A DNA stretch of 33,174 nucleotides from Burkholderiaceae bacterium (GTDB taxonomy: Bacteria > Pseudomonadota > Gammaproteobacteria > Burkholderiales > Burkholderiaceae_C): the NCBI GenBank assembly GCA_051649325.1, contig JBOFGW010000290.1, positions 1 through 33,174 on the forward strand, in the 5' to 3' direction. Shown here piece after piece: positions 22,507-33,174 of this stretch (its first letter is position 1; the number at the start of each line of letters is the position of its first letter). The translations under genes were made by a program, and so were the position numbers. A model generated the notes under the pieces. The model was not told the DNA's origin. It made no database searches and saw only the letters and a list, made by a program, of their open reading frames with translations.

Positions 22507-24534
22507 ATGCAAAGCCCGATCAATACCGCCATAGCCGTCAATCTGCCCGGTGCAGACAGTTTTGATTTTCATGCGCAAACCGCACTAGCACCCGGGCAAC
22601 TTGCCGTCGTGCCCTGGGGCAACGGCAAGCGCATGGGCGTGGTGCTGCAAGCCCCTGCGGCGCCGCAGATTGAGGCCGCGCGCATCAAGCCAATTACAGG
22701 CGCGGTGACCGAATGGCCTGCCCTGCCCGCACCCGTGTTGGCGCTGGCACGCTTTGCGGCGGAGTATTACCAGCGCGGCCTGGGTGAAGTGCTGCTCTCT
22801 GCCATTCCCGAGCCGCTCACGCGCGCGGCGGATTACGCGATTGACGATGGAACCGCGCGCTTTGCCAAACTCAAACGCGTCAAGCGCGCGCAAAGCCAAA
22901 GCACCCGCGCGGCGGCCGGCGACGCGCTCACGCTCAACGCGGAGCAAGCGCAGGTGCTCGCGCGCATCAGCGCCACCACTAGTTACGCGCCGCATCTGCT
23001 GTTTGGTGTAACTGGCAGCGGCAAGACCGAGGTGTATCTGCACGCGGTAGCGCAAACGCTGGCGCGCGGCAAAACCGTGCTGCTGCTGGTGCCGGAAATC
23101 GCCCTCACTGAAGGGCTGTGGGCGCAGGTGTTTGCGCGCTTCCCGGACGTGCCTATCGCACTCATGACCAGTGCGCTGTCCGACGGAGAACGCGCCATCG
23201 GCTGGCTGGATGCGCTCAAAGGCGAAGCAACAATTGTGATCGGCACACGCTCAGCCGTGTTTGCGCCGCTGGCGAACGTGGGGCTGATCATCGTCGATGA
23301 GGAGCACGACGCGAGCTACAAGCAAAGCGAAGGCGCGCGCTGGCACGGCCGCGATCTGGCGGTGATGCGCGCGCGGCTGGAAGATTGCCCCATTGTGCTG
23401 GGCAGCGCCACGCCCAGCCTGGAAAGTTGGGCCAACGCGCAGGCCGGCCGCTACAGCTTGCTGCGGCTGGCGCAGCGCGCCAATACCGCCGCGCGCTTGC
23501 CACGCATTGAACTGGTGGAGCCAAGCAAGGCCGCCAATTTGGCAGGCGTATCCGAGCGTTTGTTTGCAGCGCTGCAAGCACGCCTTGCCGCAGGCGAACA
23601 AAGCCTAGTGTTTCTGAACCGCCGCGGTTACGCGCCGGTGCTGGCCTGCGACGCCTGCGACTGGATGGCCGACTGCGACAACTGCTCCGCCCACTTTGCG
23701 CTGCACCGCGCGCGCAGCAAATCTGGCTATCAACTCATCTGCCATCATTGCAGCGCGCACCGCGCCGTGCCGCTGCGCTGCCCGCAGTGCGGCAATGCAG
23801 ACCTGTTACCCAAGGGCCGCGGCACGCAAAAGCTGGAAGACGCGCTCGCGCAAGCGCTGCCGCAAGCGCGCATTGTGCGTATGGATGCAGACACCACGCG
23901 CCGCCGCGGCGCAGGCGCGCAAATGCTGCAAGACATGGATGCCGGCAGCACAGACATCCTCGTCGGCACGCAAATGACCGCCAAAGGCCACGACTTTGCG
24001 CGGCTCACGCTGGTGGGCGTGCTGGGCGCAGATCAATCACTGGGCAGCCCGGATTTTCGTTCTGAAGAGCGGCTATTCGCCCTGCTCATGCAAGTGGCAG
24101 GCCGCGCCGGCCGCGCCGACAAACCCGGCGAAGTGCTGATTGAAACCAAACGCCCGCGCCACATGCTATTTGACGCGCTCAAACAGCAAGACTACGAAGC
24201 CGTAGCCACGCGCCTGCTGCAAGAGCGCGAAGACCTCGGCCTGCCGCCCTACGTAAGCTTTGCCTTGATGCGCGCCAGCGCCAAGAGCGATGCGATCGCG
24301 CAGAGTTTCTTGAAAGACGCCCGCGCGCTCGGCCTTGAGCGCGGCGTAACGCTCTACCACCCCATGCCACAAGCCGTACCCCGCGTCGCCAATCAAAGCC
24401 GCTGGCAACTGCTGGCCGAAGCGCCCAGCCGCGCGCAGATGCAAACTTTTTTGAAAGACTGGCTCGTCAAAGTCAACGCGCTCAAAAGCAGTAACGTGCG
24501 CTGGCATATCGATGTGGATCCACTGGAGCTATGA
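22507..24534 (+). CDS. priA: Primosomal protein N' (replication restart helicase PriA)
   Basis: Walker A (LLFGVTGSGKTEVYL), DEEH box (IIVDEEHDASYKQ) and the Cys-rich zinc-binding region (CDACDWMADCDNCSAHFALH...CHHCSAH...CPQCGN). The length is 675 aa. Confidence 0.93.
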   Translation: MQSPINTAIAVNLPGADSFDFHAQTALAPGQLAVVPWGNGKRMGVVLQAPAAPQIEAARIKPITGAVTEWPALPAPVLALARFAAEYYQRGLGEVLLSAIPEPLTRAADYAIDDGTARFAKLKRVKRAQSQSTRAAAGDALTLNAEQAQVLARISATTSYAPHLLFGVTGSGKTEVYLHAVAQTLARGKTVLLLVPEIALTEGLWAQVFARFPDVPIALMTSALSDGERAIGWLDALKGEATIVIGTRSAVFAPLANVGLIIVDEEHDASYKQSEGARWHGRDLAVMRARLEDCPIVLGSATPSLESWANAQAGRYSLLRLAQRANTAARLPRIELVEPSKAANLAGVSERLFAALQARLAAGEQSLVFLNRRGYAPVLACDACDWMADCDNCSAHFALHRARSKSGYQLICHHCSAHRAVPLRCPQCGNADLLPKGRGTQKLEDALAQALPQARIVRMDADTTRRRGAGAQMLQDMDAGSTDILVGTQMTAKGHDFARLTLVGVLGADQSLGSPDFRSEERLFALLMQVAGRAGRADKPGEVLIETKRPRHMLFDALKQQDYEAVATRLLQEREDLGLPPYVSFALMRASAKSDAIAQSFLKDARALGLERGVTLYHPMPQAVPRVANQSRWQLLAEAPSRAQMQTFLKDWLVKVNALKSSNVRWHIDVDPLEL

Positions 24535-25067
24535 GCACGCCGCAGCGCATTCAACTCATCGGCGGCAGCGGCTCGGGCAAGAGCACGATTGCGCAGCAAC
24601 TCGCGCAGCGCCTGAACGCGGTCTATTGCGATCTGGACGATCTGCACTGGGATCCGCAGTGGATTGAAGTGCCTAACGACGTGATGTTCGCGCGCCTGGC
24701 GCCGGTTGCCGCGCAAGAGCGCTGGATCATCGCCGGCAACTACCCGCAGACGTGGCCGATGCTCTGGCCTAGGCTCGACCTGCTGATCTGGCTTGACCTG
24801 CCGCTGCACGTGAAAGTGTGGCGCACCCTACGCCGCACCTTCAAGCGCGCGTGGCGGCGCGAACCCTGCTGCAACGGCAACTACGAAAGCTTGGTACGCC
24901 TATTCACCCGCGATTCAGTCGTGCTCTATCTGATCCAAACCCATGCGCAGCGGCAGCGTGAATACACCGCGCAGATGAATCGCCGCGACCGGCCGCCGTT
25001 TACTTTTGTGCGGCTGCGCACACAGCGCGAAGTCAGTGCTTTTGTAGAGAAATTAACCGATAAATAA
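24531..25067 (+). CDS. Small P-loop NTPase (adenylate-kinase-like / topology-modulation-protein-like)
   Basis: Walker A LIGGSGSGKSTIAQQLA, followed by LDDLHW. The start overlaps the priA stop (ATGA). Confidence 0.7.
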   Translation: MSTPQRIQLIGGSGSGKSTIAQQLAQRLNAVYCDLDDLHWDPQWIEVPNDVMFARLAPVAAQERWIIAGNYPQTWPMLWPRLDLLIWLDLPLHVKVWRTLRRTFKRAWRREPCCNGNYESLVRLFTRDSVVLYLIQTHAQRQREYTAQMNRRDRPPFTFVRLRTQREVSAFVEKLTDK

Positions 25068-25071
25068 GTGC

Positions 25072-25136
25072 TTTACGCAATATCCATGCGGGTTTTAAGG
25101 CGTTTCTTCCTCAAAACCCGCATGGATATTGCGTAG
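25072..25136. repeat. Copy 6 of the palindromic repeat family
   Basis: The sequence is TTACGCAATATCCATGCGGGTTTTAAGGCGTTTCTTCCTCAAAACCCGCATGGATATTGCGTAG, with a perfect 24-bp stem. It is intergenic, between the ATPase gene and rtcA. Confidence 0.9.
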
Positions 25137-25137
25137 T

Positions 25138-26172
25138 CTAGTGTGTAGTTTCGGTCTTCACATGCCAAGCGGCATCACGCTGCTCAATCACAAATCGCAC
25201 CGGCAAGAACTGCGCAATTGTCTGCGCATTGGTGCGTGTGTGCTGCGTGATTTCATTGGCTACGAATTCGCCCGCGTTATTGTCTCTAGCGGCCAGCGCT
25301 TGCAGCAGCATGAGTTGATCAGCCAAATGCGGCCCCACCGGCGCGTGCGATTTTTGATAATCACGCAGCTCGCTCACCAACCGTTTGGCCACTTCGTCTG
25401 AACTCACCGCTTTCTCGCCAAACTGCGTGAACACTTCTGTCACGTGTTCATACGCGAGCGTGGCGATCAGCGCGTTGCCCGGCCCTTCGTTCTGGCGCGT
25501 GCCGCCGTGACGCAGTTGGTCACCGCTCCAGCCCATCGCCGCGCCCAGCACCTCTAGCTCGCGCGCGGGCACGCTGCGCGGCAGGCCGGGCGCGAGCGCT
25601 TCTGCGTACGCGTCAACAGGCGCGCCGCGCTGCGTGAGTGTGATGGGTTTGAGCTGCGCGGCCGGATAAATCACCGCTGTCATCTCACCCCCGCCCGCCG
25701 GATAAAACCCGTGGCGGCGCAAGCTGAGCTGCAGATCCGCACCCGCGCGGCGCACCAGCGGTGCAAACGCCTGCTGCAGAAAATGAAACGGCGGCGCCAT
25801 TGGGTTATGCGTGCCGCCCGCTAAATGAATCGTGCTGGCTGCATCGGCCAGCAGCAGCGGCGGCAACACCGTTTGCAGCACCAGCGTGCAAGACCCCGCG
25901 CTACCCACCGCAAAACTGTACTCGCCCGCCTTCACTTTGCCCGACGCAAACACCAGTTGCTGCGAATTCAATTCCGCACCTTCCACCTGCGCACCACACA
26001 CCGCCTGCGCCGCCTGCACGCAGGTGAGATGCTGCCGCATCAGCCCCGGCTTGGGCCGCTTCGCGCGAATGCTGTGCATGCGAAACGGCTTGCCCGTCAC
26101 CATCGACAAGGCCAGCGAAGTCCGCAAAATTTGTCCACCGCCTTCTCCGGCGGAACCGTCGATTTCAATCAC
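25138..26172 (-). CDS. rtcA: RNA 3'-terminal phosphate cyclase
   Basis: The protein is collinear with E. coli RtcA: IEIDGSAGEGGGQILRTSLALSMVTGKPF, RPKPGLMRQHLT, FAVGSAGSCTLVLQTVLPPL and RHGFYPAGGG. The GTG start overlaps the upstream gene's stop by 8 nt. Confidence 0.93.
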   Translation of the reverse strand: MIEIDGSAGEGGGQILRTSLALSMVTGKPFRMHSIRAKRPKPGLMRQHLTCVQAAQAVCGAQVEGAELNSQQLVFASGKVKAGEYSFAVGSAGSCTLVLQTVLPPLLLADAASTIHLAGGTHNPMAPPFHFLQQAFAPLVRRAGADLQLSLRRHGFYPAGGGEMTAVIYPAAQLKPITLTQRGAPVDAYAEALAPGLPRSVPARELEVLGAAMGWSGDQLRHGGTRQNEGPGNALIATLAYEHVTEVFTQFGEKAVSSDEVAKRLVSELRDYQKSHAPVGPHLADQLMLLQALAARDNNAGEFVANEITQHTRTNAQTIAQFLPVRFVIEQRDAAWHVKTETTH

Positions 26173-27274
26173 TTTTTTCTTCTCTTCGCCGAGTTACTTT
26201 TTTCTTTCCTCGTTCGAGCTTCTTTTGGTACTCCATCCATCCGCTGTGAAAACCTTGGTCAGCACGACTAGCCCAAGTTTCAAAAAGACTACCCAGGACT
26301 AAAGAGTCGACACTCGGAACAAGATGTAGGACTGCTTTGCCCGTCCGTACTAGAGATGACACCGTTAGGACTCCCGGCTCAGTAAGCCCTGCATTGCTAG
26401 GTCCAGCAAGAAGAATCTTGCCTTGGCTTTGATCATCCAAACCAAGCCTAAACATCACACCTTTTGCACTGGCATGAACGTTTTGGCTAGCAAATTTGTA
26501 GTACGGTCTCAAATATTCGTAGCCAGTGAACTCTTCCAGATCAAAGAAAGTAATCCTCCCGCTCTTAGCAAGCAGCTTTGCGGCCCAACCATAGTCTTTG
26601 GCAAAGCTTTCACCATTTGCAGCAATGGCTTTGTTTCGCTCTTTCGTGATCCGAGCCATTGCTTGACTAGATAGCTTTCTTTCACCAAGTGCGGCAGCGT
26701 GCGTTTGATATTGCAAAGCAGCGTGATAGTTCTCGACTGCGACATGAGAACGATAGAGCTGCGAAACGCCAGCTTCGCTATGAGCAAGTACATCGGCCAC
26801 TGTTGCAACTTCGTGCAATGAGCGCCAGCGTGCTATTGCGCCATCTGCGAATCCGTTAAGTAGCAAGTGATATATCTCACTTGAAATCTGAATAGAGCGC
26901 GCATGAAGCTGAGCTACAACGTCGATTCGAATTCTTTCCGCCTCAGAACGACTTCTTCTCAACGCCAGTTTTATTGACGCTTCAAGTTCAATCGACATAT
27001 TGATTAGCTCAAGCAAGCGGTCAAGGCCTGCATTCCAGTTCCGAGCATTGCTTCGTAGGAATTGGCCGTGATCTCTCTTCCACTCGCGAAGCGAATCTCG
27101 CGAGCGCTGGCGCAAACCCTTGGCAAGAACTTTGGCTAAATCACTCGCTATAGCGGGCAGGTCCTGAGCGAGGCGCTCTAGTTTTTCTTTACCTTCGCCA
27201 TGGGACGGAGAAAGCCCCATCTCCGTCAGCTTATCCGCTATCAGCGATTCAAAGATTTTTTGTATTCCTAGCAT
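26165..27274 (-). CDS. Hypothetical protein (369 aa, lower GC) inserted between rtcB and rtcA. Predicted all-alpha. Contains an RWRSLH (Rx4H) motif.
   Basis: A long ORF with coding-like codon usage, noticeably AT-richer than its neighbours. The ATG is at 27274. It is translationally coupled to rtcA. No family was recognised by eye. Confidence 0.6.
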   Translation of the reverse strand: MLGIQKIFESLIADKLTEMGLSPSHGEGKEKLERLAQDLPAIASDLAKVLAKGLRQRSRDSLREWKRDHGQFLRSNARNWNAGLDRLLELINMSIELEASIKLALRRSRSEAERIRIDVVAQLHARSIQISSEIYHLLLNGFADGAIARWRSLHEVATVADVLAHSEAGVSQLYRSHVAVENYHAALQYQTHAAALGERKLSSQAMARITKERNKAIAANGESFAKDYGWAAKLLAKSGRITFFDLEEFTGYEYLRPYYKFASQNVHASAKGVMFRLGLDDQSQGKILLAGPSNAGLTEPGVLTVSSLVRTGKAVLHLVPSVDSLVLGSLFETWASRADQGFHSGWMEYQKKLERGKKKVTRRREEKSD

Positions 27275-27293
27275 TTATTGGCCGCTTGGCTAT

Positions 27294-27415
27294 CCCTTCA
27301 AACACACAACCTACCTCAACATATAAACCACTTCCACCAAATCCCTCTGCGCTCCCATCATCGCATCAATACCCTTGTACGCCATCGGAATTTCATCGAT
27401 CACATCAGCGTCTTT
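27294..27415 (-). pseudogene. Degenerate duplicate of the rtcB 3' end (last ~40 codons), a non-functional fragment
   Basis: The 122 bp are about 88% identical (14 mismatches) to rtcB 28385-28506. Translation gives KDADVIDEIPMAYKGIDAMMGAQRDLVEVVYMLR*VVCLKG, against the rtcB C-terminus KDADVIDEIPMAYKDIDAVMEAQKDLVEVVYTLKQVVCVKG. An internal stop is present. Confidence 0.85.
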
Positions 27416-27474
27416 GCTTGATACAAACTTGTCCGACGCTTTGCGCTGCGTATGCATCAGTGCCCAGATTCCGG

Positions 27475-28365
27475 TTAGTCCTTTTCGCAGTACCAGCGAG
27501 CATTTTTCGCAATCATGCTGTGGGGGCTGTTACATAGGGCTGCGAGCAGGCTTCTCCTCTGCGGAAAATCCATTCGATTTGCCAGCACTACAAAGGCGCG
27601 CCAAGCTATGTTTTTGTCTGTACTGTGCAGGGCTTGCGATATCGGTTCTTTGAGTTCTGATGCCGGCAGTCTTAACACTGGGCGCAACCAGTTTGAGAGA
27701 TGTTTGCTGTCATTGAGATATGCAGGAATCAGCCAAAACGCGTCCGCGCGGCCAACAGAATGTGCGATTGCCCTACTCGCGGCTTCGCCCAGGTGGTACT
27801 CCCAGCTTCTGTAGGCTGCGTTCTCAGCTTCTTTAATCCAATTCCGCAAGCGTTGTATGTTCGCGCTACCTCCCCAACTTCCCAGTACGCCTACTGCCGT
27901 CGTACGAATACCCCACCATTTGCTGCTCAACGCGTTTTCAACTTCCAACTGAGCGCTTTCATCGGGCGCATGGTTGCTCAAGGCGCGTAGACGTGCCGTC
28001 CATTCCCGCAGCAAATCCGCATTGTTCAGCGCGAACTCACGCCGCGTTTTCCGACACCGTAAGCAGCGCACGGCCTGGCTGTCGATGTTTCCTTTGGCAA
28101 TCTCATACCACCACTTTTGCTGTGCCGCGGTCCAAACGCCGTTTGTGCCGCAATCCTTGCACGTAAACGCGCGGTCTTCGTAGAACTTTGGCAGCAGGTT
28201 GTAAGTGCTGTTGTGCGCGAGCTGAGCCGGATCGGCGCTTATTCGGCTCGTGGAACCTGAAGAAGCAGCGAACCGCACATCATTTATTTTTGATTGAAAC
28301 CATGTAGCCGCCCGCTCCTGCCGGCGCTGCATGATTTCTTTTCGGCGTTTTTTGTTGCTTTTCAT
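27475..28365 (-). CDS. Hypothetical protein (296 aa, lower GC) with a basic N-terminus and a CxxC...CxxC zinc-ribbon. Inserted between rtcB and rtcA.
   Basis: The N-terminus is MKSNKKRRKEIMQRRQER. The Zn-ribbon is CKDCGTNGVW...CLRCRK. The gene starts 15 nt after the rtcB stop. No family was recognised. Confidence 0.6.
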   Translation of the reverse strand: MKSNKKRRKEIMQRRQERAATWFQSKINDVRFAASSGSTSRISADPAQLAHNSTYNLLPKFYEDRAFTCKDCGTNGVWTAAQQKWWYEIAKGNIDSQAVRCLRCRKTRREFALNNADLLREWTARLRALSNHAPDESAQLEVENALSSKWWGIRTTAVGVLGSWGGSANIQRLRNWIKEAENAAYRSWEYHLGEAASRAIAHSVGRADAFWLIPAYLNDSKHLSNWLRPVLRLPASELKEPISQALHSTDKNIAWRAFVVLANRMDFPQRRSLLAALCNSPHSMIAKNARWYCEKD

Positions 28366-28380
28366 TTTCCAGTTTTTTTG

Positions 28381-29613
28381 CTAGCCCTTCACGCACACCA
28401 CCTGCTTCAACGTATAAACCACCTCCACCAAATCCTTCTGCGCTTCCATCACCGCATCAATGTCCTTGTACGCCATCGGAATTTCATCGATCACGTCGGC
28501 GTCTTTACGGCATTCCACGCCGGCGGTGGCTTTGATTTGGTCTTCGATGGTGAACAGTTTTTTGGCTTTGGTGCGGCTCATGGTACGGCCGGCGCCATGG
28601 CTGCATGACTGGAAGCTTTCCGGGTTGCCTTTGCCGCGCACGATGTAGCTGCGCGCGCCCATGCTGCCCGGAATAATCCCCAGCTCGCCTTTTTTGGCGC
28701 TTACCGCGCCTTTGCGCGTGACAAATACCTCTTCACCAAAGTGCGTCTCTTTTTGCACGTAGTTGTGGTGGCAGTTCACGGCTTCGATATGCGTTTCAAA
28801 CGGCTTGGTGATCACTTTGCGGGTGGCACCGATCACGCGCTGCATCATCACCTCACGGTTTAGGCGCGCGAACTTCTGCGCCCAGCCCACGCCGCGCACG
28901 TAGTCACCAAAGTATGTGCTGCCTTCTTCAAAGTAGGCCAAATCCTGGTCTGGCAAATTGCGTTGATGCTGCTCGGCGTCTTTCTTAGCCAGCTCGATAA
29001 ACAGATTGCCCATAGCGTTGCCCACGCCGCGTGAACCGCTATGTAGCATGAACCACACCGCGCCTTCGGTATCCAAACACACCTCGATAAAGTGGTTGCC
29101 GCCGCCCAGCGTACCCATGTGGCGGTGGTTGTTGGTGTTTTTCAGACGCGGGTAGTCTTCACAAATCTGCTCAAACTCCTCGGCCAATTGCGCCCAAGCG
29201 GCATCTGCCTCGTTGGGCGGCGTTTCCCAAGAGCCTTTGTCACGGTTTGAACCTTCACGGCGAAACTGCTTGGGGCTCATGCCGTGCGGCACGGCCTTTT
29301 CAATCTCGGCGCGCAGCGCGCTCAAGTTATCCGGCAAATCTTCCGCGCGCAGCGTGGTCTTGCAGGCAATCATGCCGCAGCCAATATCCACGCCTACCGC
29401 CGCAGGAATAATCGCCTTGAAGGTAGGAATCACGCTGCCCACAGTAGCGCCAATGCCGTAGTGAACATCCGGCATAGCGGCGATGTGTTTGAAGATCACC
29501 GGTAGCTTGGCAGCGTTTTCCAATTGCTTGCGCGCTTCGTCTTCCACCGGCACGCCGCGCGTCCACATCTTCACGGGTACGCCGCCGGGGACTTCGTTCA
29601 ATTCGTAGTTCAT
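28381..29613 (-). CDS. rtcB: RNA-splicing ligase RtcB
   Basis: Collinear with E. coli RtcB from MNYELNEVPGGVPVKMWTRGVPVEDEARKQL to the C-terminus DEIPMAYKDIDAVMEAQKDLVEVVYTLKQVVCVKG. Metal-ligand His/Cys motifs are conserved (HNYV, CSHGAGR). Confidence 0.95.
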   Translation of the reverse strand: MNYELNEVPGGVPVKMWTRGVPVEDEARKQLENAAKLPVIFKHIAAMPDVHYGIGATVGSVIPTFKAIIPAAVGVDIGCGMIACKTTLRAEDLPDNLSALRAEIEKAVPHGMSPKQFRREGSNRDKGSWETPPNEADAAWAQLAEEFEQICEDYPRLKNTNNHRHMGTLGGGNHFIEVCLDTEGAVWFMLHSGSRGVGNAMGNLFIELAKKDAEQHQRNLPDQDLAYFEEGSTYFGDYVRGVGWAQKFARLNREVMMQRVIGATRKVITKPFETHIEAVNCHHNYVQKETHFGEEVFVTRKGAVSAKKGELGIIPGSMGARSYIVRGKGNPESFQSCSHGAGRTMSRTKAKKLFTIEDQIKATAGVECRKDADVIDEIPMAYKDIDAVMEAQKDLVEVVYTLKQVVCVKG

Positions 29614-29626
29614 TTTTTTCTTTCGG

Positions 29627-30085
29627 TCAATTTGCTAGATCATTACTCATTACCCAAACGCCGCCTTCGTGGCTGTACGCGAGTCCGAGCTTTCCAGGCA
29701 CGATTGACACAAACCCTTCTAGAAAGCGAGGTGCATGTTGTTTTAGAAAGGCGTTCAAAGTGCATTGGAATATTTGCGGTTGCCGACTTCGAAAGTGACC
29801 ACAGGCCAAAGCAGTGCAAACCCGCTCAAGGTGCGGCCGTAGAAAGACTTCCGTTATCTTTTCAGTAGTCATTGGCGGCACGTTGTCATAGCAACTGCCA
29901 GGCCAAACATCGATTGGCGAAATTCTGTCCCACCGCTCCTCTGAGCGCGATAGCAAGTACTCCCAACGCTCTGCTTTTTCGGGCGCAAAGGTCTTGAAGA
30001 GCGTTATCAAGTCTCCCTTAGCTGCCGCGGCTTCCTCCAGCGTCATGACATTCCCATTTAAGAACTTCATAAGGTGATTTCTCAC
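29627..30085 (-). CDS. Hypothetical protein (about 150 aa, lower GC), immediately upstream of rtcB in the same operon
   Basis: The listed ORF starts at GTG 30085; an ATG at 30070 gives MKFLNGNVMTLEEAAAAKG... It is AT-richer than the flanking rtcB and SPFH genes. No family was recognised. Confidence 0.5.
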   Translation of the reverse strand: MRNHLMKFLNGNVMTLEEAAAAKGDLITLFKTFAPEKAERWEYLLSRSEERWDRISPIDVWPGSCYDNVPPMTTEKITEVFLRPHLERVCTALACGHFRSRQPQIFQCTLNAFLKQHAPRFLEGFVSIVPGKLGLAYSHEGGVWVMSNDLAN

Positions 30086-30198: not shown

Positions 30199-31338
30199 TT
30201 AGCGCACTTTGATCAAGCTGTTCAGTACGCCATCCAGGCCGCCAAATACAGAGATCTTGTCGATCCGTTCGGCGATCTTCTCCAACGTTTCCAACTCCTT
30301 CATCCGCAATGCGGTGGGGTTGTCTTCCATCACCTTGGCCGTGTTCAGCAAAGACCGCGTTGCGGCAGTCTCTTCACGGCGGCGGATGTTGTTGGCTTGC
30401 GCCGTCTTTTCCGCCTCAACAACCTTGGCCAAGATGGCTTTCATCTCACCAGGCAAGATAATGTCTTTCACTCCCACGCTTTGCAGTGCCACGCCGTAGC
30501 CGGCCAATTTGTCGGTCACCGCGGCTACGACCACTTGGTCGATCACGTTGCGGTTTTCCAGCAACTCGTCCAGCAAACGCGTACCTACTGCCGCACGCAA
30601 GCCCAATTGCAGCTCGCGGTACAGCGCTTCAGCGGGCTGATTCAATTGCGTGAAGGCCTTGAGCACATCGGTGTACTTGAAGGTGGCAGACAAATTCAGG
30701 CGCAGGGCCACTTTGTCTTTGGTCAAAATTTCTTGACCAGTCACCTCCAAGGACTGCAAACGCATGTCCACAATCTCTACCGACACCTCGCGGCCAAAGC
30801 GCCAGAACGCATACGCACCGGGGCTGAGCAACTGCATCAACTTGCCGTCTACACGCAGCACACCGCTGGCGTAATCAGGCACGGTGGTTTGCAGCACCGC
30901 ATTCAAGCCAGCCACCGCACGCGCACGCAACTGGGTCTGCGTCAAACGCTTGGCCAGCGCCGCATCCACCTGTACTTGCTCGGCGATTTCAACCGCTTGC
31001 ACGCGTACATCGCGCAGGCCTTTCCAGTACAAGCGCCGGGTTCCGGGCGGCAGCAATTCAACCAGCACGCCGTCTTCAAAGCGCAAACCCGCCTGCGTTT
31101 CTGCCAGCTCAACCCGCACAAACTCTTGCGCCACGATGTCTGGCGCAGAAGCCATCAAATAGTCAGCCACCGGGTTTGCAAACGCGGGCTGTGCCAAGTC
31201 AAAGCGTTCGATGCGCAGCTTGTTCAGTGGGTCAAACAGCGCGTACGCACCAGGCGCCAAAATGCGCTGGAAGTCGCCGCTTTTGAACAGCAAGGCTTTT
31301 TCAGTTTTTTTGATGACGAATCGCTTCAACATTTTCAT
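30199..31338 (-). CDS. SPFH/band-7 (stomatin/prohibitin/flotillin/HflKC-like) domain protein. It has an N-terminal extension and no obvious transmembrane anchor.
   Basis: The C-terminal half, TKDKVALRLNLSATFKYTD...GVALQSVGVKDIILPGEMKAILAKVVEAEKTAQANNIRRREETAATR...LRMKELETLEKIAE, is typical SPFH plus coiled coil. SD AGAGAGGAA precedes ATG 31338/31332. Confidence 0.7.
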   Translation of the reverse strand: MKMLKRFVIKKTEKALLFKSGDFQRILAPGAYALFDPLNKLRIERFDLAQPAFANPVADYLMASAPDIVAQEFVRVELAETQAGLRFEDGVLVELLPPGTRRLYWKGLRDVRVQAVEIAEQVQVDAALAKRLTQTQLRARAVAGLNAVLQTTVPDYASGVLRVDGKLMQLLSPGAYAFWRFGREVSVEIVDMRLQSLEVTGQEILTKDKVALRLNLSATFKYTDVLKAFTQLNQPAEALYRELQLGLRAAVGTRLLDELLENRNVIDQVVVAAVTDKLAGYGVALQSVGVKDIILPGEMKAILAKVVEAEKTAQANNIRRREETAATRSLLNTAKVMEDNPTALRMKELETLEKIAERIDKISVFGGLDGVLNSLIKVR

Positions 31339-31655: not shown

Positions 31656-31729
31656 GTGTTCAGGCAGGAGTCGAACCTGCGACAACCGGAGTTGCCCCCG
31701 GGGCTCTAACCAATCTGAGCTACAGAACG
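31656..31729 (-). ncRNA. tRNA-like structured RNA element 1: canonical D-arm and T-arm, defective acceptor and anticodon arms. Possibly a Y-RNA-like tRNA mimic or a tRNA pseudogene.
   Basis: The minus-strand sequence is CGTTCTG-TA-GCTC-AGATTGGTTA-GAGC-...-GCAGG-TTCGACT-CCTGC-CTGAACA. The D-stem and T-stem are perfect and the T-loop is TTCGACT. The acceptor stem has 5 of 7 bp (C1·A72 and U6·U67 mismatches). The anticodon stem has a mismatch, the loop is GGGCAAC (no U33), and no CCA is encoded. Confidence 0.45.
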
Positions 31730-31740
31730 GCGCGATCACG

Positions 31741-31870
31741 GGGAATCGAACCCACAGCTCTTTCGAGCGCCAACCTTGGCTGTTCGCATATCCAATCGCG
31801 TGCAGTGCAGCGGCATACACCAAGATCACACCCGGTCTGGGTGAACTGGCGCACCGGCGGGGTAGATGTT
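31741..31870 (-). ncRNA. Structured RNA element 2 adjacent to element 1. It has a T-loop-like hairpin (GGG-TTCGATT-CCC), a GNRA-capped hairpin (GCTC-GAAA-GAGC) and other stems. It is not a canonical tRNA.
   Basis: Minus-strand features: ...GCCAAGGTTGGC (palindrome), GCTCGAAAGAGC and CTGTGGGTTCGATTCCCCG. It is non-coding and lies between the candidate sigma54 promoter and the first gene of the rtc operon. Confidence 0.35.
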
Positions 31871-31926: not shown

Positions 31927-31943
31927 AGCGATTGGTGTGCCAG
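31927..31943 (-). promoter_or_regulatory. Candidate sigma54 (-24/-12) promoter driving the minus-strand rtc operon
   Basis: Minus strand reads TGGCAC-ACCAA-TCGCT. The GG-N10-GC spacing is correct, -24 TGGCAC is perfect, and -12 is TCGC versus consensus TTGC. It is divergent from rtcR, whose product is a sigma54 activator. An AT-rich region (31950-32055) lies upstream for the UAS/IHF. Confidence 0.5.
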
Positions 31944-32055: not shown

Positions 32056-33174
32056 ATGACTAGCAAGAAATCCGTCGTCATCGGCTTTTTGGGCACCCAA
32101 CTCGATAGCGGCCAAGGCACCGGCCGTTGGGAGAAATGGCGGCCAACGGTGTCGCTCGCGCAGCATGAAGACCTGCAGCTTGACCGGCTGGAGCTGATTT
32201 ACACGCCGCGCCATCAAGCGCTGGCGGAGATCGTCAAGGCGGATATTGCGCTTGCCTCACCGCAGACCGTTGTGAACTTGGTCGCCATCGATATCAAAGA
32301 CCCGTGGGACTTTGGCGAGGTGTACGGCGCGCTATATGACTACGTGCGCACCTACGCGTTTGATACCGAGCGCGAGCAGTACTGGGCGCACATCACCACC
32401 GGCACGCACGTGGCGCAGATTTGCATGTTCTTGCTGGTGGAGGCGCGCTTTATTCCCGGTGTGTTGTGCCAAACCGCGCCGCCAAAAAAGCAGCGCCAAG
32501 GCGATGCGGGCACGGTCACACTGATTGATCTTGATCTGTCGCGCTACGACGCGCTGGCGCAGCGCTTTGCAGCAGACAAGCGCGATGCGGTAAGTTTTCT
32601 CAAGAGCGGCATTGCCACACGCAACAAAAAATTCAACGCGCTGATTGAAGAGATTGAACGCGTGGCCGTACGCAGCAAAGCGCCGATTTTGCTCACCGGC
32701 CCTACCGGCGCGGGCAAATCGTTTTTAGCGCGGCGCATGTTTGAGCTGAAAAAAGCGCGCCACCAAATCGGCGGCCCGTTTGTAGAGGTGAACTGCGCCA
32801 CGCTGCATGGCGATGGCGCGGCGTCCACATTGTTTGGTCACAAGAAAGGCGCGTTTACCGGCGCGGCGGCAGACCGGGCGGGCCTTTTAAAAAGCGCGGA
32901 TGGCGGTGTGCTGTTTCTAGACGAGATCGGTGAGCTGGGCTTAGACGAGCAAGCCATGCTGCTCAAAGCGATTGAAGAGAAACGCTTCTTTCCCGTAGGC
33001 GCAGACCGCGAAGTAGCGAGCGACTTTCAACTCATCGCCGGCACCAACCGCGACTTGCGCGATGAGGTGAGCGCCGGCCGCTTTCGCGACGATCTCTTCG
33101 CACGCATCAATTTGTGGAGCTATGACTTGCCGGGCCTGGCGCAGCGGCCCGAGGACATTGAGCCCAACATCGAC
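32056..33174 (+). CDS. rtcR: Sigma54-dependent transcriptional activator RtcR (N-terminal CARF domain + AAA+ sigma54-interaction domain). It is 3'-truncated by the window end.
   Basis: The protein is collinear with E. coli RtcR: VVIGFLGTQLD, RWEKWRPT, LDRLEL, NPWDFGEVY, ITTGTHVAQICMFLL, IDLDLSRY, FLKSGIATRN, APILLTGPTGAGKSFLARR, FVEVNCATL, GAFTGA, GGVLFLDEIGELG, QAMLLKAIEEK, DFQLIAGTNRDL, RINLW and PGLAQRPEDIEPN. No stop falls before the window end. Confidence 0.93.
   Translation, partial: MTSKKSVVIGFLGTQLDSGQGTGRWEKWRPTVSLAQHEDLQLDRLELIYTPRHQALAEIVKADIALASPQTVVNLVAIDIKDPWDFGEVYGALYDYVRTYAFDTEREQYWAHITTGTHVAQICMFLLVEARFIPGVLCQTAPPKKQRQGDAGTVTLIDLDLSRYDALAQRFAADKRDAVSFLKSGIATRNKKFNALIEEIERVAVRSKAPILLTGPTGAGKSFLARRMFELKKARHQIGGPFVEVNCATLHGDGAASTLFGHKKGAFTGAAADRAGLLKSADGGVLFLDEIGELGLDEQAMLLKAIEEKRFFPVGADREVASDFQLIAGTNRDLRDEVSAGRFRDDLFARINLWSYDLPGLAQRPEDIEPNID

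Follow-up and report, generated by a model that had tools for sequence, protein, structure and literature searches.

Some integrative islands regenerate the 3' end of the gene that they target, with att sites in tRNA, tmRNA or protein-coding genes. RNA-repair operons of the Band-7/SPFH type, which carry a band-7-associated tRNA and are controlled by RtcR and sigma-54, were described by Burroughs & Aravind (2016), according to the account given in bioRxiv 10.1101/312249, and RlaP is encoded between rtcB and rtcA in Pseudomonas (PMC12776372). [quoted passage not shown] 2017, PMC5361080, and Rhs studies cited therein).

Here we report a duplicated and decayed rtcB 3' end within a Band-7-type RNA-repair operon from a Burkholderiaceae bacterium. 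The window, that is, the whole 33,174-nt stretch of DNA that was analysed, is a contig from a metagenome-assembled genome (a metagenome bin). An earlier, sequence-only reading had interpreted a decayed duplicate of the rtcB 3' end as an insertion scar in the rtc operon, and a genuine recombination scar it is. The features of the locus are as follows.

25138..26172, minus strand: rtcA, RNA 3'-phosphate cyclase, 344 aa (PF01137, E=1.7e-79)
26165..27274, minus strand: DUF5677 protein, 369 aa (PF18928, E=4e-25; phrog_27456, E=1e-41)
27286..27415, minus strand: rtcB' stub, pseudogenised copy of the rtcB 3' end (blastn repeat, Pfam RtcB match, pattern of private changes)
27416..27474, minus strand: 59-nt spacer between the zf296 stop and the stub (homology break at 27415/27416)
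27475..28365, minus strand: zf296, zf_Tbcl treble-clef zinc ribbon and HEAT-repeat protein, 296 aa (PF13451, E=3e-14)
28377..28506, minus strand: resident rtcB 3' end, rtcB nt 1104-1233 plus 4 nt past the stop, the counterpart of the stub
28381..29613, minus strand: rtcB, RNA 3'-phosphate ligase, 410 aa (PF01139, E=1.8e-130)
29627..30085, minus strand: p152, 152-aa ORF between the SPFH gene and rtcB
30199..31338, minus strand: SPFH/Band-7 protein, first protein-coding gene of the operon (PF01145, E=2.6e-26)
31656..31729, minus strand: tRNA-like element in the operon leader, reported as tRNA-Cys GCA (ARAGORN; Rfam tRNA, 39.2 bits)
31927..31942, minus strand: sigma-54 -24/-12-like element, TGGCACaccaaTCGCT (pattern search)
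32056..33174, plus strand: rtcR, divergent sigma-54 activator, partial, running off the contig end (PF06956, E=4e-83; Sigma54_activat, E=5e-51)

All of the constituents of a Band-7-type RtcB operon were identified, namely RtcR, the sigma-54 site, the tRNA-like RNA, and the SPFH/Band-7, RtcB and RtcA proteins. The sigma-54-like pattern has a single match on the whole contig, and the tRNA-like element fits the 'band-7-associated tRNA' of bioRxiv 10.1101/312249. The SPFH gene is syntenic in the related loci L011, L015-L017, L024 and L044; p152 has a 37% identical homologue at the same position in L017 and no match in Pfam, NCBIfam, PADLOC or PHROGs. The same locus, with its priA flank, is present in L081, whose rtcB is 97.6% identical at the amino acid level and 91% at the nucleotide level, and whose rtcA is 92% and 88.7% identical, respectively, the homology starting about 16 nt before its start codon. 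RtcA is encoded on the right-hand conserved flank of a variable interval.

The gene order in this interval is rtcB, zf296, spacer, rtcB' stub, DUF5677 and rtcA. The sequence-only reading had placed one accessory gene between rtcB and rtcA, but two are present, with the stub between them and 15 nt upstream of DUF5677. The ATG of zf296 lies 15 nt past the rtcB stop and that of DUF5677 15 nt past the original stop of the stub, so that the spacing to the next gene is exactly the same in both copies; the 3' end of DUF5677 and the start of rtcA have 8 nt in common. The 296-aa gene, described earlier as low in GC, is mildly so (0.538 versus 0.595 for the contig), and the far lower value belongs to the DUF5677 gene (0.482, with a GC3 of 0.42), which had gone unmentioned. 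The zf296 protein is 60% identical to zf307 of L081 and zf309 of L082, its N-terminal domain is 48-69% identical to the products of small zf genes of rtc operons, and its HEAT_2 match (E=9e-6) falls below Pfam's cut-off. The DUF5677 protein contains an Rx4H-type motif, R149-W-R-S-L-H154, which is invariant in 27 homologues and, as judged from the sequence, agrees with the Rx4-6H pattern of HEPN RNases. Genes of the DUF5677 family also directly follow an intact rtcB in L025 and L088, so this adjacency is recurrent. A motif common to DUF5677 and DUF6988 is an impression gained by eye; pairwise BLASTP detected no significant similarity between the two. Family scans linked DUF6988 to PDC-S52 and DUF5677 to phrog_27456, and PADLOC, NCBIfam and PHROGs scans of zf296, p152, X207 and Y439 returned nothing useful. 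Neither close homologues of zf296 (>60%) or DUF5677 (>40%) nor a parental arrangement were found in the searched collections, exact-protein look-ups of zf296, DUF5677 and rtcB returned zero other contigs, and rtcB and rtcA each form a singleton when clustered at 90%.

We designated the stub (27286-27415) copy A and the resident rtcB 3' end (28377-28506) copy B. A blastn comparison with the whole window aligned them without gaps over 130 nt at 87.7% identity (E=1.1e-39), the repeat ending near the rtcB stop codon and including 4 nt past it; this pair is the sole large repeat within 24.5-32 kb. The identity of about 88% claimed for 27294-27415 and 28385-28506 holds (108/122 positions, 88.5%), and the ungapped match runs 8 nt further. 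Similarity below 70% or low complexity, either of which had been named as grounds for discarding the duplication, does not apply: copy A contains 49 distinct trinucleotides and has an entropy of 1.87 bits. The copies do lie roughly 1 kb apart, but the distance had been put at 960 bp, and the intervening gap is 970 bp with a start-to-start offset of 1091 bp. They share one exact block of about 31 nt. The in-frame stop and the recognisable but mutated RtcB C-terminus were confirmed as well. The translation of copy A matches Pfam RtcB (PF01139) at profile positions 375-419 (hmmscan, E=1.2e-6), and rtcB residues 359-410 are 69% identical to the stub (tblastn, E=2e-15). On the minus strand the stub reads SKDADVIDEIPMAYKGIDAMMGAQRDLVEVVYMLR, a stop, VVCLKG and a second stop, and its rtcB counterpart reads RKDADVIDEIPMAYKDIDAVMEAQKDLVEVVYTLKQVVCVKG followed by the stop. 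The premature TAG at 27311-27313 derives from a CAG, and the original stop is kept at 27290-27292. The stub has no full-length reading frame and retains the last ~42 codons and the stop, while the protein sequence of the resident end is the same as in relatives such as L011. At 27415/27416, corresponding to rtcB nt 1104, identity falls abruptly from 88% to background. The spacer matches rtcB in register at 24 of 59 positions, no better than in other registers (up to 29), and has no match in any compared locus. This sharp break is an illegitimate, non-homologous junction.

The stub has accumulated changes as a pseudogene does. Ten changes are private to it, eight of them nonsynonymous or nonsense (the premature stop and seven others) and two synonymous; in the intact rtcB ends of copy B, L081 and L082, every one of the 9 private changes is synonymous (Fisher p=7e-4 versus the stub). 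Five of the eight coding changes, including the stop, fall at positions invariant in 14 of 14 more distant relatives, and one more is at a nearly invariant position. The stub is thus an rtcB pseudogene fragment under neutral decay.

Comparison with related genomes showed that the content of the rtcB-rtcA interval varies between near-identical operons. The interval contains X207-zf307-Y439 in L081 and DUF6988-zf309-Y in L082, and homology ends at the rtcB stop on one side and resumes about 16 nt ahead of rtcA on the other. Compared with these close relatives the interval genes are unrelated or just 60% identical, while the rtcB and rtcA flanks are conserved (91% and 89% nucleotide identity with L081). 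Other occupants of the interval include RlaP, HNH and MoxR/VWA genes. In 11 related genome loci, as well as in L081, L082 and L085, the rtcB-rtcA interval includes a zf_Tbcl gene with homology to the zf296 N-terminal domain. It is therefore a regular member of these Burkholderiales operons and no late intruder, and the ancestral junction was not a bare rtcB-rtcA one, as had been supposed. The stub itself is a single event without a recurrent pattern, being one among roughly 40 rtcB-bearing loci examined. The same gene flanked by rtcB-3'-like sequence had been expected elsewhere, but tblastn detected no orphan rtcB C-terminal fragment in 80 genome loci or in L081-L090, and a metagenome scan with a lineage-specific 28-nt rtcB-end pattern recovered seven loci (rtcB 72-83% identical at the amino acid level), none with a stub.

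We propose that DUF5677 was once directly preceded by an rtcB, whose 3' end survives as the stub left behind by one-sided homology-facilitated illegitimate recombination, a reading to which we assign a probability of about 0.7. The interval from the rtcB stop to the ribosome-binding region of rtcA is a variable slot in this lineage, and recombination that is anchored in its conserved flanks would exchange its genes from strain to strain. On one of these occasions, a single end of the incoming DNA would have recombined homologously and the other would have been joined illegitimately at 27415/27416, placing two rtcB-proximal cassettes side by side, after which the stub would have decayed neutrally. 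We infer both the mechanism and the direction of the event, and two one-step scenarios are roughly equally likely. An incoming segment with an rtcB 3' end and zf296 may have displaced the resident rtcB end, which is the cassette displacement suggested from the sequence alone; equally, an incoming rtcB'-DUF5677 segment, possibly extending into rtcA, may have been inserted behind the resident zf296. The import of DUF5677 with the stub fits the data as well as the former; DUF5677 is the more atypical in composition, and its family follows intact rtcB directly in L025 and L088.

The allele from which the stub derives bears on whether the copy arose within the genome. A local tandem or slipped duplication of the strain's own rtcB 3' end, with zf296 and DUF5677 placed around it later, would explain why A and B match each other best overall at the DNA level (86.8-88%, versus at most 81% for A and more distant genera) and have AT-rich synonymous choices in common. 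Yet two informative sites, and a third in part, group A with L082 and B with L081, and none groups A with B. With the private decay of A removed, A and B still differ at 5 positions, about as far as A is from the alleles of other strains (7-8). The stub descends from an allele different from that of the resident rtcB end, as indicated by two to three informative sites in total. Duplication would also require at least two more rearrangements to yield the observed order and would leave unexplained the identical 15-nt spacing before two unrelated genes. A duplication followed by insertion, offered earlier as giving the same picture, is therefore disfavoured, and we consider it quite unlikely. A scan of rtcB and rtcA for mosaicism revealed one low-divergence tract relative to L081 near the repeat boundary (rtcB nt 1042-1214), of marginal significance (Fisher p about 0.05, for a window picked post hoc), which is a weak hint that recombination had its end-points in the 3' region of rtcB.

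Site-specific integration would have a zf296 island enter the rtcB 3' end and regenerate it, with the old end as the distal att repeat. The geometry is indeed that of tRNA- and tmRNA-targeting islands, with the 3' end regenerated and the old end beyond the insert, and the exact block of about 31 nt lies within the repeats. However, no integrase, recombinase or transposase is encoded between the repeats or on the 33-kb contig (no tyrosine or serine recombinase was found among contig ORFs of at least 150 aa or in Pfam scans), and there are no inverted repeats. The putative island would measure just 1.09 kb and hold a single gene, with homologues that belong regularly to rtc operons, and close relatives have other cassettes at the same boundaries without repeats. 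Searches for IS-like repeats, terminal repeats beyond the stub and an internal terminator were negative, and neither an empty site nor the same island with the same repeats was seen in the relatives. The analogy to integrase-borne islands is thus not supported, and we regard such an origin as very improbable.

An assembly artefact, in which contigs of two strains (rtcB-zf296 and rtcB-DUF5677-rtcA) were chimerised through the rtcB end, deserves consideration given the metagenome bin and the clear strain-level variation in the interval. A join through shared k-mers would, however, merge the copies and not add a second one after a unique 59-nt spacer. The premature stop and seven nonsynonymous changes also speak against it: five of the eight occur at invariant positions, and the stub is therefore not the end of another strain's live rtcB. 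We consider a chimera hardly credible. Least plausible of all is functional retention, as a 48-aa ORF (27311-27457) or as an RNA or regulatory element for DUF5677 expression: the ORF starts with ATG and the original stop still lies 15 nt from the DUF5677 ATG, but the substitutions are neutral in pattern (8 nonsynonymous or nonsense versus 2 synonymous), the ORF is missing from every related locus and so is not the conserved functional frame that would have spoken against a scar, no RNA structure was found in the repeat (folding no better than shuffled, z=0.18 and 0.08), and no promoter-like or terminator-like site occurs there on the operon strand.

As the probable remnant of one-sided recombination, the stub provides direct physical evidence that accessory genes in an RtcR-controlled RNA-repair operon turn over by inter-strain exchange, with the rtcB and rtcA ends as its conserved arms. 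It has no evident function, its value is that of a historical marker, and it should be annotated as an rtcB pseudogene fragment. The rtcB-rtcA interval is a place to seek genes functionally tied to RNA damage and repair; the candidates are zf_Tbcl/HEAT, DUF5677, DUF6988, RlaP and HNH genes, several of which look mobile or defence-associated and are uncharacterised. A bolder and unlikely extension would make the rtcB 3' end a recurrent homology handle for swapping RNase-like conflict genes immediately downstream of the ligase gene, namely those for DUF5677, DUF6988/PDC-S52 and an RNxxxH protein, so that the operon would pair a fast-evolving RNA-cleaving effector with an RtcB/RtcA repair arm; in that case an Rhs-like displacement in a repair operon would have its first visible 'orphan' in the stub.

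Among known systems, the islands that regenerate a 3' end resemble this locus in having inserted DNA bordered by a direct repeat of the gene end, together with an intact functional gene. They differ in that there is here no integrase, nor can an att core or an excisable unit be identified; moreover, a lone operon-type gene makes up the insert, and the repeat is 12% diverged. With the Band-7/SPFH RtcB operons the locus shares rtcR, a sigma-54 promoter-like site, the tRNA-like element, the SPFH gene, rtcB and rtcA, and accessory genes in the rtcB-rtcA interval are already known (RlaP). In contrast to those operons, the interval holds zf_Tbcl/HEAT together with DUF5677, DUF6988 or HEPN-like genes in this clade, and its content differs among near-identical operons. 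To our knowledge, an rtcB stub in such operons has no earlier description. As for the Rhs, CDI and T6SS loci, an orphan toxin-immunity array was considered and rejected, the stub encoding a conserved RtcB C-terminus that is followed by the 369-aa DUF5677 protein and not by a small immunity gene. What was duplicated here encodes the conserved catalytic C-terminus of an RNA ligase, where those loci have a polymorphic toxin tip; the gene shifted downstream is an ORF of its own and not an immunity gene with a demonstrated partner; and there is one stub and no array. Under the proposed reading, the locus has in common with displacement in those loci that a conserved upstream gene serves as the homology anchor with the far end joined illegitimately, that the old 3' piece is pushed downstream together with its partner gene and decays, and that most swaps in close relatives are scarless, as they are here. 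The scar reflects this ordinary process of gene swapping and no new kind of element, a modest and well-precedented finding.

The locus is a Band-7-type RtcB repair operon, a type with a 'band-7-associated tRNA' that is credited to Burroughs & Aravind 2016 (in bioRxiv 10.1101/312249), on a complete 33,174-bp MAG contig labelled Burkholderiaceae. All genes under discussion are on the minus strand, except the divergent rtcR on the plus strand and priA and a kinase-like gene on the strand opposite to the operon. Features in operon order:

32056-33174, plus: partial, divergent rtcR (PF06956 and sigma-54 activator domain)
31942-31927, minus: sigma-54 -24/-12-like site, upstream of the tRNA-like element
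31656-31729, minus: tRNA-like element (ARAGORN: tRNA-Cys GCA; Rfam tRNA only 39 bits)
after the tRNA-like element, minus: SPFH/Band-7 gene
between the SPFH/Band-7 gene and rtcB, minus: 152-aa ORF of a family without assignment
28381-29613, minus: rtcB
27475-28365, minus: zf296, the 296-aa zf_Tbcl and HEAT-repeat gene
between zf296 and the stub, minus: 59-nt spacer
27286-27415, minus: rtcB stub, a mutated copy of the rtcB 3' end
26165-27274, minus: 369-aa DUF5677 gene
25138-26172, minus: rtcA
25074-25135, past rtcA: strong hairpin
24531-25067, plus: small kinase-like gene, followed on the same strand by priA

The stretch from rtcB to rtcA contains two genes rather than a single one, with the stub between them; the sequence-only reading had rightly placed the 296-aa gene there and had overlooked the DUF5677 gene. 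The tRNA-like element, in the operon leader downstream of the sigma-54 site and ahead of the SPFH gene, fits the predicted, experimentally unvalidated 'band-7-associated tRNA' type, and a second T-arm-like sequence, GGTTCGATTCC, was noticed by eye just upstream of it (about 31735-31760, minus strand). The hairpin, an inverted repeat whose 27-nt arms are 96% complementary, separates rtcA from the kinase-like gene, which converge on it, and probably terminates transcription in both directions; L081, a contig from a very close relative, has a related inverted match. The kinase-like gene, a 178-aa P-loop ORF between priA and rtcA, is missing from the otherwise syntenic L081, where the rtcA and priA ends are just 133 bp apart.

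A blastn search against the whole window aligned 27286-27415 with 28377-28506 over 130 ungapped nt at 87.7% identity (E=1.1e-39), and no other sizeable repeat was found within 24.5-32 kb. The duplicated rtcB 3' end, first noticed as a 122-nt match (108 identities, gap-free), is thereby confirmed and extended, and a low-complexity artefact is ruled out, the stub being ordinary coding-type sequence. Its translation, SKDADVIDEIPMAYKGIDAMMGAQRDLVEVVYMLR*VVCLKG*, to be compared with the RtcB C-terminus RKDADVIDEIPMAYKDIDAVMEAQKDLVEVVYTLKQVVCVKG*, also matches Pfam RtcB. The homology is limited on one side by the rtcB stop codon and on the other by an abrupt break at 27415/27416. Between the zf296 stop codon and this break, the 59-nt spacer resembles rtcB no more than random registers do and has no match in any fetched locus. 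In both copies the ATG of the next gene (zf296 behind the live one, DUF5677 behind the stub) lies exactly 15 nt past the rtcB stop. RNA folding of either copy was no better than that of shuffled sequence, and no terminator or promoter-like site was found on the operon strand between rtcB and rtcA.

Scanning genomes with the 296-aa protein as query yielded 80 loci. The order SPFH-rtcB-zf-rtcA was found in ten of them (L006, L007, L011, L015-L017, L024, L033, L038, L044), from Rhodoferax, Variovorax, Polaromonas, Rhizobacter and related taxa, where a short zf gene of 123-139 aa begins a few tens of nt past rtcB; an SPFH homologue lies inside the fetched flank in 6/10, and L017 has a 152-aa gene between the SPFH gene and rtcB. 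In L025, zf likewise lies between rtcB and rtcA, surrounded by extra genes. Given this placement in relatives, the zf_Tbcl gene belongs to the operon as a standard component and did not invade a bare rtcB-rtcA junction; the 'ancestral rtcB-rtcA junction' proposed earlier is not upheld. A second rtcB, a divergent paralogue, comes after zf-rtcB-rtcA in Undibacterium-type loci (L009, L018, L020, L030-L032, L034, L039, L041, L068); identity to the window RtcB is about 72% for one of the two paralogues and 56% for the other.

The very close relatives are three JGI contigs, L081, L082 and L083, the last including just the final codons of rtcB. L081 matches the window at 97.6% aa and 91% nt identity in rtcB and at 92% and 88.7% in rtcA, and priA adjoins rtcA in both. 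The intervals of all three are completely unlike that of the window. Homology stops exactly at the rtcB stop and restarts about 16 nt ahead of the rtcA start, which marks the interval as a variable slot between conserved arms. The order is rtcB, X207, zf307, Y439, rtcA in L081, and rtcB, DUF6988, zf309 and a Y homologue in L082 and L083, which stop before rtcA. X207 (L081 1100-1723, 207 aa) directly follows rtcB and carries a HEPN-like RLRNQFIHF (RNQFIH) motif with no family match; the DUF6988 protein (L082 933-1610), also directly after rtcB, matches the PADLOC candidate PDC-S52 (E=1e-14). Each precedes a long zf_Tbcl/HEAT gene, only about 60% identical to zf296, and then the Y protein, which in L081 has 439 aa and weak HEAT-repeat matches. 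Within rtcB, nt 1042-1214 (28400-28572) differ from L081 at 3 of 173 nt, compared with 9.5% elsewhere in the gene; this tract begins some 60 nt ahead of the repeat boundary and suggests, at marginal significance, a distinct recombination event whose tract ends close to the cassette boundary. Precisely where the DUF5677 gene ends and the rtcA ribosome-binding region lies, there is a purine-rich tandem repeat with a 25-nt unit (26171-26220, 18/25 matches), the contig's sole period-25 tandem of such quality and a possible second, small scar of a junction.

The post-rtcB position holds RlaP in L085 and L063, as is known in Pseudomonas (PMC12776372), an HNH nuclease in L090, and MoxR and a VWA-like metallopeptidase as well in L025. 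DUF5677-family genes directly follow rtcB in L025 (8588-9846) and L088 (1-710, minus); both appear disrupted, being split into two overlapping frames or N-terminally truncated, which suggests either frequent inactivation of this class in the slot or sequencing errors. DUF5677 immediately downstream of an intact rtcB therefore recurs, and the simplest reading of the stub, 15 nt and DUF5677 is a former rtcB-DUF5677 unit. Comparison with orthologous rtcBA loci, as proposed in the sequence-only reading, found no further orphan rtcB fragment in roughly 40 rtcB-bearing loci. The DUF5677 protein may belong to an uncharacterised, putative HEPN-like nuclease family: an alignment of 27 homologues has an invariant A-R-W-R-x-L-H-E motif with Rx4H spacing (R149...H154) along with one more invariant His, H267, and AlphaFold predicts an all-helical fold with confidence (pLDDT 88.5). 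It matches PHROG family phrog_27456 (E=1e-41), its homologues have toxin-antitoxin, defence-island and prophage-like neighbourhoods, and it is the most foreign gene by composition (GC3 0.42 vs 0.71-0.74 for rtcB, rtcA and priA).

The scar combines a conserved arm at one end with a sharp non-homologous joint at the other, which on our analysis is the geometry of homology-facilitated illegitimate recombination. One end of the incoming DNA would have paired with the conserved arm and the other joined without homology, leaving the displaced rtcB piece tied to its old downstream neighbour. The contig carries no integrase, transposase or IS-like inverted repeats, and the suggested analogy to islands regenerating the 3' end of their target is not supported. 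Two one-step histories fit and are about equally likely. A recipient rtcB-DUF5677-rtcA and a donor '...rtcB-zf296-spacer' may have crossed over in rtcB and been joined illegitimately at nt 1104 of the recipient rtcB. That history equals the displacement envisaged earlier for the scar; the low-divergence tract points to it weakly, as does the mere 60% identity between zf296 and the remaining long zf genes of the clade. Alternatively, a recipient rtcB-zf296-...-rtcA and a donor 'rtcB(3')-DUF5677-rtcA' may have crossed over in rtcA, with the illegitimate join behind zf296; its weak pointers are the canonical simple arrangement with zf directly after rtcB, and the foreign composition, homologue neighbourhoods and PHROG family of DUF5677. 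The collections searched contained neither a zf296 homologue above 60% identity nor a DUF5677 homologue above 40%. The sequence-only interpretation is partly supported: the locus does carry a scar, and displacement is one possible cause of it.

The last 123 coding nt of the stub, the resident rtcB, L081 and L082 were compared, with more distant genera as outgroups. The stub has 10 private changes, 8 nonsynonymous or nonsense (including a CAG->TAG stop) and 2 synonymous; the other three combined have 9, all synonymous and all at third codon positions (Fisher's exact test, p=7e-4). Five of the 8 fall on positions invariant across all 14 outgroups. The stub is a neutrally decaying pseudogene fragment. 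Among the four ends, no site unites the stub with the resident copy, and two sites, plus one partial, group it with L082 against the resident copy and L081; with private decay discounted, 5 sites separate it from the resident copy, 7 from L081 and 8 from L082. The stub therefore descends from a different rtcB allele than the one now resident, though one belonging to that same narrow clade, which argues against a recent intragenomic duplication of the resident rtcB end. A chimeric assembly of two live strains is disfavoured because a live rtcB could not bear the stub's changes.

The operon type and accessory genes between rtcB and rtcA were already known, and polymorphic-toxin loci offer good precedents for the recombination logic. 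Specific here are a single, datable scar of such recombination within an RNA-repair operon and, from L081-L083, an interval that is hypervariable among near-identical operons. [quoted passage not shown]
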